Shown here one piece after another: positions 19,636-20,406 of a DNA stretch of 64,000 bases. Position 1 is the stretch's first letter. Every line of letters begins with the position of its first letter. The position numbers and the translations under genes were made by a program. The DNA is from Saccostrea echinata (lineage: Eukaryota), in NCBI RefSeq assembly GCF_033153115.1, contig NW_026889754.1, positions 12,152,001 through 12,216,000 of the forward strand, written 5' to 3'. The notes beneath the pieces are model-generated. The model was not told the origin of the DNA, made no database searches, and was given only the letters and a program-made list of their open reading frames with translations.

Positions 19636-20406
19636 CTACAAGTTGAGCAACTCCTGTGGGTCGACAGAAATTGTTAACACGTCAGGGTCACTCCAACACT
19701 CTTTGACAATGTCTAATTCTAGTCGTCGTATCCACTTTCTTGATAATAAATGATCTGGATGTATACCGTCCTTCAAAAGATGGAAATTAATAGATTGTCT
19801 ACCTTTGCACCTGACCTTCACAATATCCAAGTGAAATTGCAGGGTATTTCTGCCTAATGTGTCATTCAGTTCACAGATACTGCGATTGAGGAGCGTTACT
19901 TCCTCTTTGATAAGATTATCAGTACTCTGGAAAGATTCGGGTCGCCTATGACCAAGATGGGAGTTGTACACCTGGGCCGAGTACACGGGTATGGTAACAA
20001 ACTTTAATGATCCTTGTTTCAAAGTTACAAACTTAATCAGTCTTTGAAATTGTTCTAATATGTGAGCAGTTGCTGAACCTACTTTATTGTAACGCAGCTC
20101 TATGTGTTTATGCCTGTGTTGTCCAACTTTCTGTGTAATGTCACACACTCCTAATAGTACATAAACAACAAGTGGTCTGGTTTCCTGGAATAATTTTTCT
20201 AGTTCCGGAATTGCCTTGTCTATGGCTCTTGCAGTTGTTGCCCCTGGATATGTAAGGAACTGTAGTGGAATTCCTGAAGAATTTCTGTTCCTTCTTAATG
20301 TGTCTCCAAGGCTGTCTGAAATGAGTACTGGTAGCTTTTCACAGGAAGTTGAAGGCACCTTAAGTGGATTTTTCTCCAAAAAATTTATTATGTTTTTTGA
20401 GCTCAT
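19636..20406 (-). CDS. ORF0 of Gypsy-A: SGNH/GDSL hydrolase-fold protein (256 aa, uninterrupted)
   Basis: Blocks I VLISDSLG, II YPGAT, III LLGVCD and V KDGIHP in canonical order; lies between the PBS and gag, inside the LTRs. Confidence 0.7.
   Translation of the reverse strand: MSSKNIINFLEKNPLKVPSTSCEKLPVLISDSLGDTLRRNRNSSGIPLQFLTYPGATTARAIDKAIPELEKLFQETRPLVVYVLLGVCDITQKVGQHRHKHIELRYNKVGSATAHILEQFQRLIKFVTLKQGSLKFVTIPVYSAQVYNSHLGHRRPESFQSTDNLIKEEVTLLNRSICELNDTLGRNTLQFHLDIVKVRCKGRQSINFHLLKDGIHPDHLLSRKWIRRLELDIVKECWSDPDVLTISVDPQELLNL

Follow-up and report, generated by a model that had tools for sequence, protein, structure and literature searches.

An SGNH-like open reading frame, here called ORF0, lies ahead of gag in a Ty3/Gypsy LTR element of Saccostrea echinata. 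The locus raises the question of whether this frame is a gene of the element or a passenger, what its protein might do, and how gag is reached behind it. On balance, we consider it probable that ORF0 is an inherited accessory gene of Gypsy elements, a predicted esterase of low output through which ribosomes would mostly scan to gag. Transposons of many classes repeatedly acquire SGNH esterases, of which a single one has been characterised, and the present case offers a defined stand-alone family of 240-260 aa, whose active site has a distinguishing residue and which occurs in four element classes of a single genome. The presence of ORF0 in some Gypsy families and its absence from close sisters provide a natural comparison set, and the proposed passage of ribosomes across a long upstream gene to gag is a route that was not found described for animal LTR retrotransposons.

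The element and the insertion in its gag

The element occupies positions 12135-20884, on the minus strand, of the window, which is the whole 64,000-nt stretch of contig NW_026889754.1 that was analysed (Table 1). Its 5' and 3' LTRs align pairwise with 144 matches, 2 substitutions and 2 indels. One base past the 5' LTR comes a primer-binding site, TGGTGTCAGAAG, and we take TGGTGTCAGAAGT to be of tRNA-Leu type. Gag, the zinc knuckle, protease, RT and RNase H were identified by Pfam and are followed by integrase frames recognised by similarity, so that the element, with gag and then PR-RT-RH-IN in that order, belongs to Ty3/Gypsy. The flanks share 4 nt with one mismatch, a putative target-site duplication; exact 4-nt duplications flank the relatives L036 and L069. 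The original prediction of a complete LTR element stands as regards the LTRs, primer-binding site, polypurine tract and gag-pol, but an insertion of ~1.8 kb at about the third codon of gag, with sister copies aligning on either flank, had been missed. In addition to this insertion, gag-pol has decayed through ~8 frame-shifting indels private to the window's copy and 2 in-frame stops. Some of these lesions could be artefacts of assembly. The window's copy of the element is dead.

Table 1. Features of the Ty3/Gypsy element, in window coordinates
Feature	Position	Strand	Remarks
5' LTR	20739..20884	-	146 nt, TG...CA; aligned to the 3' LTR
Primer-binding site TGGTGTCAGAAGT	20725..20737	-	Identical motif after the LTR in relatives
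5' leader	20407..20724	-	Single AUG, opening a 5-codon uORF
SGNH-fold ORF0	19636..20406	-	256 aa; S32, G55, C88 for Asn, D213, H216
gag start codon and first codons	19624..19633	-	AUG 19633-19631, purine at -3; 2 nt past the ORF0 stop
HINE/Helentron-like insertion in gag	17833..19623	+	Ends +/-4 nt, in a T-run
Remaining gag	16430..17832	-	Retrotrans_gag, zinc knuckle (Pfam); frameshifts and one stop
pol	12374..16433	-	Protease, RT, RNase H, integrase; several frameshifts and one stop
Polypurine tract	12297..12306	-	Precedes the 3' LTR
3' LTR	12135..12293	-	159 nt, TG...CA

The insertion is composed of about ten 166-bp tandem units, a microsatellite and a 3' GC palindrome, at a T-rich site, a layout that matches the oyster HINE elements (non-autonomous Helentrons) as outlined in parts of PMC7492417 and that by itself points to a probable bivalve host. 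HINE elements also have subterminal inverted repeats of 11-12 bp, whereas in the gag insertion only a 7-nt repeat at the left end was seen by eye, and no exact inverted repeat of at least 9 nt was present within the end 150 nt. Reads of a single RNA run cover almost solely this satellite insertion and are uninformative as to expression of the element. More HINE-like elements, with units of 156-169 bp, are present at 11452-11839, 39340-40206 and 23250-25500 of the window. Elsewhere in the window, 7088-7781 and 23960-24870 are two copies of one repeat, 93-96% alike, which contains the remains of an RT-like frame, and there are arrays of 30 bp in two blocks (33052-34954), of 21 bp with an internal inversion (55718-56576) and of 156 bp (57827-58906). 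The stretch 60001-64000 is GC-richer and skewed, resembles the Gypsy region and is possibly another element.

Fold and active site of the ORF0 protein

ORF0 runs from an ATG for 256 aa, free of internal stops, between the primer-binding site and gag, and the residues originally named are all in place: S32 within SDS, the block II G55, GVCD at 86-89 and D213-G-I-H216, with D31 preceding S32. The SGNH assignment was borne out by structure prediction. An AlphaFold (AF2) model from a 134-sequence alignment (pLDDT 95.1, pTM 0.90) has the alpha/beta/alpha fold of SGNH proteins; every top match listed by Foldseek against the PDB was an SGNH/GDSL hydrolase or a protein designed on the SGNH scaffold (best E 1.5e-8), and VIA aligned 185 residues to 4ppy (Z 19.2, rmsd 2.8). 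The ZfL2-1 esterase (4c1b) and Oskar OSK (5a4a) were absent among the matches listed by Foldseek and VIA, and a likeness to either may nevertheless exist.

Among the 134 aligned homologues, which are 20-65% identical to the ORF0 protein, the nucleophile Ser (Ser32 column) is kept in 133, the block II Gly (Gly55) in 125, and both Asp213 and His216 in 129. At the block III position 129/134 have Cys and the other 5 have Asn; when a chain built on the SGNH scaffold is aligned, this column falls on that chain's Asn. At this frequency the Cys is a family trait, and the ORF0 protein is an SGNH-fold S-G-C-H variant and not a canonical SGNH/GDSL member. Since its triad is intact the variant is probably catalytic, and the modelled structure and conserved residues make an active serine esterase a prediction that we hold with good confidence. 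The block III Asn helps to form the oxyanion hole, according to sections of PMC10792757, and Cys in its place could lower or alter activity. K33, T91, K93 and N148 are conserved family-wide. The protein is basic (pI 9.3, with 128/134 homologues above 8.5) and is without a transmembrane stretch.

A non-catalytic RNA-binding domain resembling Oskar OSK, which would agree with the basic charge and with the loss of the block III Asn, is very unlikely. In OSK the Ser is replaced by Asp and the triad is missing, as stated in portions of PMC10792757, whereas Ser, Asp and His are retained in 129-133 of the 134 homologues despite their divergence. The near-universal Ser makes an Oskar-like role unlikely in particular, and the RNA-binding function suggested in the original prediction is accordingly disfavoured.

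The family is one that sequence searching alone misses: there was no SGNH Pfam match for ORF0 or the 13 homologues tried, and no match at a useful E in PDB sequence searches. A Lipase_GDSL Pfam match at E<=0.1 was obtained for 24 of the 134 homologues. With a 16-sequence profile, 2,178 cluster representatives (50% identity) were found at E<=0.001, for which there is no dedicated Pfam model; the best 150 of the 2,178 are mostly stand-alone proteins of 230-270 aa, and longer, fused forms were not seen among 7,991 scored candidates, which is weak evidence. Atlas neighbours were mollusc and annelid clusters and, lower down, Lipase_GDSL clusters (0.93; the family being on 21-33% of members). The named entries among 20 representatives looked up were uncharacterised Mytilus proteins. 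Mussel gene sets annotate such ORFs as 'uncharacterised proteins', many of which are probably transposon genes. The closest outside homologues (64-65% identity) are the clusters P0001 and P0002, from contigs of up to about 7.0-7.3 kb; the window's element minus its insertion is ~6.96 kb, near this size, and faintly suggests that this element also occurs in other genomes.

Inheritance within Gypsy and kin in other element classes

A search of the S. echinata genome itself gave 81 matches among 96 candidates, and these are intronless homologues inside mobile elements. Forty loci were fetched at 10 kb, of which 39 could be oriented by the ORF, and gag and/or pol lies downstream on the same strand in 22 of the 39. 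In several of these 22 the LTRs are 99-100% identical and the ORF0, gag and pol frames are all unbroken. The frame is present in other LTR-bounded copies at these loci, in line with the original prediction, against which its absence would have counted. Four of the five Gypsy pairs with a finite value have dN/dS of 0.08-0.24, the young pair L041/L040 has 0.82, and in six deeper Gypsy pairs dS is saturated with pN of 0.20-0.43. ORF0 is under purifying selection, and this selection is older than the window's insertion. ORF0 stands before gag in every Gypsy copy examined. Relatives with DNA context were absent from the metagenome and viral contigs searched, which confines the demonstrated linkage to gag to this genome.

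The ORF0 of the window's copy had been singled out as the only uninterrupted gene of the element, and gag-pol is indeed broken. The observation nevertheless carries no weight: a 768-nt stretch would escape 7-9 breaks over 5.46 kb with a probability of 0.28-0.37, or about 0.2 at 11 breaks, so its intactness is not significant and the frame is unbroken by chance. An unbroken ORF0 beside a broken gag-pol, in a copy whose seven closest sisters at 10 kb (L031-L035, L037 and L070) have it broken or truncated, might otherwise suggest that the host has domesticated it. This reading, like the idea that the frame was captured from the host or is neutral cargo, is scarcely credible. Against them stand an intactness at chance level, on which domestication was rejected, LTRs that differ by only two substitutions, the intronless homologues inside mobile elements, and selection that precedes the insertion.

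A further 80 loci were hand-picked from 300 RT matches to cover families, and ORF0 is present in 5 of them (one labelled from the 10-kb loci). On a quick IQ-TREE of 100 RT rows, 25 with ORF0 and 75 without (two labels taken from the 10-kb loci; RTs <125 aa and one nested locus omitted), its presence needs 6 changes, at least 5 of them forced by starred branches, and part of the absences may be decay. ORF0 is optional, being missing from most of the Gypsy families sampled. Five Gypsy lineages carry it, namely A, which holds the window's copy, and B, both with short LTRs, and C, D and E with long LTRs and a PNMA-like gag; within lineage A, the ORF tree agrees with the RT tree.

Other differences among the Gypsy copies were seen in passing. 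Three esterase-less copies have a different ORF of 76-79 aa in the same slot, from primer-binding site to gag (element-oriented L152:5459-5695, L158:5609-5836 and L162:5570-5806), with two CxxC pairs and zinc-ribbon-like by eye; apart from this ORF, no other long ORF was found among the long leaders listed for esterase-less sisters. The Gag of L046, from 2276 onward, starts with a helix-hairpin-helix (Pfam HHH_3, E 7.6e-6, just under the cut-off), which the Gag starts of L047, L088, L089, L092 and L105 resemble by eye.

One esterase subfamily is common to Gypsy, LINE, Helitron and transposase-bearing elements of this genome, and exchange of the esterase among element classes is evident from these relationships. 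In an esterase tree of 27 rows, the LINE and transposase-linked copies nest beside Gypsy lineage C, where long branches meet. Neither monophyly of Gypsy ORF0 (p-AU 0.08) nor that of A+B (p-AU 0.18) was rejected, so a single old gain with many losses is indistinguishable from several separate gains, and the trees single out no donor. The possible acquisition from LINE ORF1 that had been suggested holds to the extent that ORF0 has kin among the LINE ORF1 esterases of S. echinata, and does not extend to a direction of transfer.

The kin outside Gypsy take several forms. In L052, L060 and L062, which are decayed LINEs, the esterase is ORF1 ahead of an endonuclease-RT ORF2, and that of L060 presumably has a 2A-like motif near its start. 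In L074:2808-8456 (with L051) and L078 (with L055), a Helitron Rep-helicase with an N-terminal OTU domain has a divergent esterase of this family behind it. In L075:6329-9175 (with L058) and in L071/L045, L072/L048, L073/L050, L082/L065 and L083/L054, a transposase-like ORF of 900-950 aa is followed by the same esterase, within a repeated element of 9.5 kb whose copies are 96-99.7% alike. This long ORF has no Pfam match and lies in the Atlas near unnamed clusters from fungi and cnidarians, the nearest named ones being hAT-like (0.78), and the 9.5-kb element is probably an unclassified DDE transposon.

The route to gag, the role of the esterase and known systems

In lineages A and B the ORF0 stop and the gag AUG that follows are separated by 2 nt, ~16 nt or 25 nt, or overlap (UAAUG, L046), and the junction of the window's copy is identical in the sisters L031, L032, L034 and L070. 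In lineages C-E the spacer is 200-570 nt with many AUGs. The window's ORF0 has a weak start context (-3 U, +4 A), no internal Met, and only two out-of-frame AUGs, both in weak context and each opening a 3-codon frame. The -3 base is a pyrimidine at the ORF0 AUG of all 13 Gypsy copies having that AUG, a purine at the gag AUG in 16/16 (the second in-frame AUG being used for L036), and A, also a purine, at the SGNH AUG of three of three DNA transposons. A weak ORF0 start is also found in the unpurged lineages C-E and is therefore not diagnostic alone.

The AUG content was examined by a test devised after the lack of Met had been noticed, on five A+B ORFs from two lineages, which together hold 15 ATG vs 78 CAT. 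Out-of-frame ATG number 14, against 44.4 expected under a codon shuffle (p 0.0002) and 23.3 under a protein-fixed null (p 0.0026); under this stricter null no individual A+B ORF was significant (p 0.06-0.43). The purge was not seen in five C-E ORFs (51 ATG vs 50 CAT), in three DNA-transposon esterase copies (44 ATG vs 32 CAT), or in gag or pol of the same elements. Internal Met is scarce family-wide (0.35%), which tells against the scanning proposal. A weak upstream start, a long AUG-poor ORF and a stronger downstream start are combined in lineages A and B only, and this signature, together with analogous viral cases, makes leaky scanning to gag likely in both. ORF0 and Gag would be translated from the same RNA, the former in small amounts: most ribosomes would pass the weak ORF0 start, scan the AUG-poor frame and initiate at gag, perhaps aided by stop-start reinitiation. 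Lineages C-E would make Gag by another route, which may be splicing, shunting or internal entry. The L036 subfamily, with 7 leader AUGs and none at the ORF0 start, does not fit leaky scanning simply, and a non-AUG start or a spliced leader is proposed for it. In L036:1498-2268 (element-oriented), L125 and L015 the ORF0 frame is open and its first 700 nt are without ATG in any frame.

The original prediction was correct in that gag needs non-standard translation, but its choice of splicing, reinitiation or internal initiation omitted leaky scanning, which is the best-supported route for lineage A. Termination at the ORF0 stop and reinitiation at gag, instead of leaky scanning, is suggested by the 2 nt between stop and start in the window's subfamily and by the UAAUG overlap in L046, a type of junction known from some non-LTR elements according to extracts of PMC5902531. 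We think it unlikely, since it requires efficient translation of an ORF0 whose start is weak, has no need of an AUG purge within ORF0, and meets spacers of ~16 and 25 nt in close relatives. Improbable to a similar degree is that gag is expressed from a spliced or subgenomic RNA, with ORF0 solely from the unspliced one. Splicing would suit the long, AUG-rich spacers of C-E, and AG-ended pyrimidine stretches lie close to some junctions (L047, L036), yet it leaves the A/B purge unexplained and no shared acceptor before the gag AUG of C-E was found by eye.

As to the protein, the esterase may act on an acyl lipid or membrane, helping complexes of the element to dock on or cross membranes. This substrate is the least certain part of the proposal, a tentative suggestion and yet the most likely role, made by analogy with the basic, liposome-binding ZfL2-1 LINE esterase. 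Homologues in capsid-less Helitron and transposase-bearing elements argue against a particle-specific role, and for this reason counter-defence is ranked next: the enzyme would deacylate or deacetylate a metabolite or a host factor involved in silencing or restriction, to the benefit of any mobile element. Such a role would be consistent with one subfamily serving four element classes and with the Cys variant and the conserved K33, T91, K93 and N148, which suggest a special substrate, and the patchy gain and loss, with at least five forced changes on the RT tree, may be read as the pattern of an accessory conflict gene. It is rather unlikely, given strong purifying selection with no rapid change seen, and given that the only characterised transposon esterase binds phospholipids, as reported in excerpts of PMC3905857. 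More broadly, and with some reservation, it is conceivable that animal mobile elements use the S-G-C-H family as an interchangeable accessory gene, handed on between Gypsy, LINE, Helitron and cut-and-paste-like elements, which Gypsy would have placed before gag several times, with leaky scanning through a 770-nt AUG-purged ORF evolving at least twice and the enzyme targeting host membranes or a shared host defence component.

An extra ORF ahead of gag has a precedent in Ogre, one of whose additional ORFs precedes gag. Plant Ogre elements are, like the present one, Ty3/Gypsy elements with accessory ORFs, of unknown function and apparently not SGNH in the available parts of PMC6431247. Esterases in LTR elements are already known; in the literature searched, none was found that precedes gag, none with the Cys variant and none with such a translation signature. 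The full texts searched likewise gave no case of leaky scanning to gag in Gypsy elements, and Repbase, supplements or subscription journals may already record the ORF. The words hydrolase and esterase are absent from a mollusc LTR survey (PMC6238403) and a metazoan errantivirus survey (PMC13524379).

The original prediction placed SGNH domains in non-LTR ORF1 and OSK, an incomplete list, as published LTR cases exist. The Vesta1 LTR elements of bdelloid rotifers have a GDSL/SGNH ORF3 after pol with S, G, N and H intact (parts of PMC5408684), and the rotifer ORF is mentioned again in a passage of PMC6431247. Like ORF0, Vesta1 ORF3 is a stand-alone SGNH protein in a Gypsy-like element, without a transmembrane part, patchy, of predicted activity and common to unrelated retroelement classes; by their descriptions the two differ in that ORF3 follows pol and keeps the Asn, whereas ORF0 precedes gag, has Cys and shows a translation-coupling signature. 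SGNH ORFs are also carried by Ngaro elements (a portion of PMC9210276) and, as texim genes, by fish Helitrons (a portion of PMC4021074); compared by these partial descriptions, both are SGNH genes of putative function on mobile elements, of other classes and in other positions. The ZfL2-1 LINE ORF1p esterase, basic and liposome-binding in the relevant parts of PMC3905857, shares with ORF0, as do other ORF1p of the CR1/L2/RTEX type so far as these are described there, the SGNH fold and the place as first ORF upstream of the replicative one. ORF0, in contrast, lies in an LTR element beside a full gag, is a single domain with no long N-terminal extension and has a GxCD/GxCN block III; its kin in L052, L060 and L062 are the ones that form the first ORF of a non-LTR element. 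For translation, the nearest parallel is found in rice tungro bacilliform virus (RTBV) and badnaviruses, in which, by the account in sections of PMC5902531, scanning proceeds for ~900 nt through AUG-free ORFs. Their ORF I/II, like ORF0 of lineages A and B, are long, start in a weak context, have internal AUGs rarely if at all, and precede a capsid-RT ORF on the genomic RNA, whereas these viruses, on the same partial account, are plant pararetroviruses that use ribosome shunting, encode unrelated proteins and provide experimental proof of a route that would be followed by ORF0.
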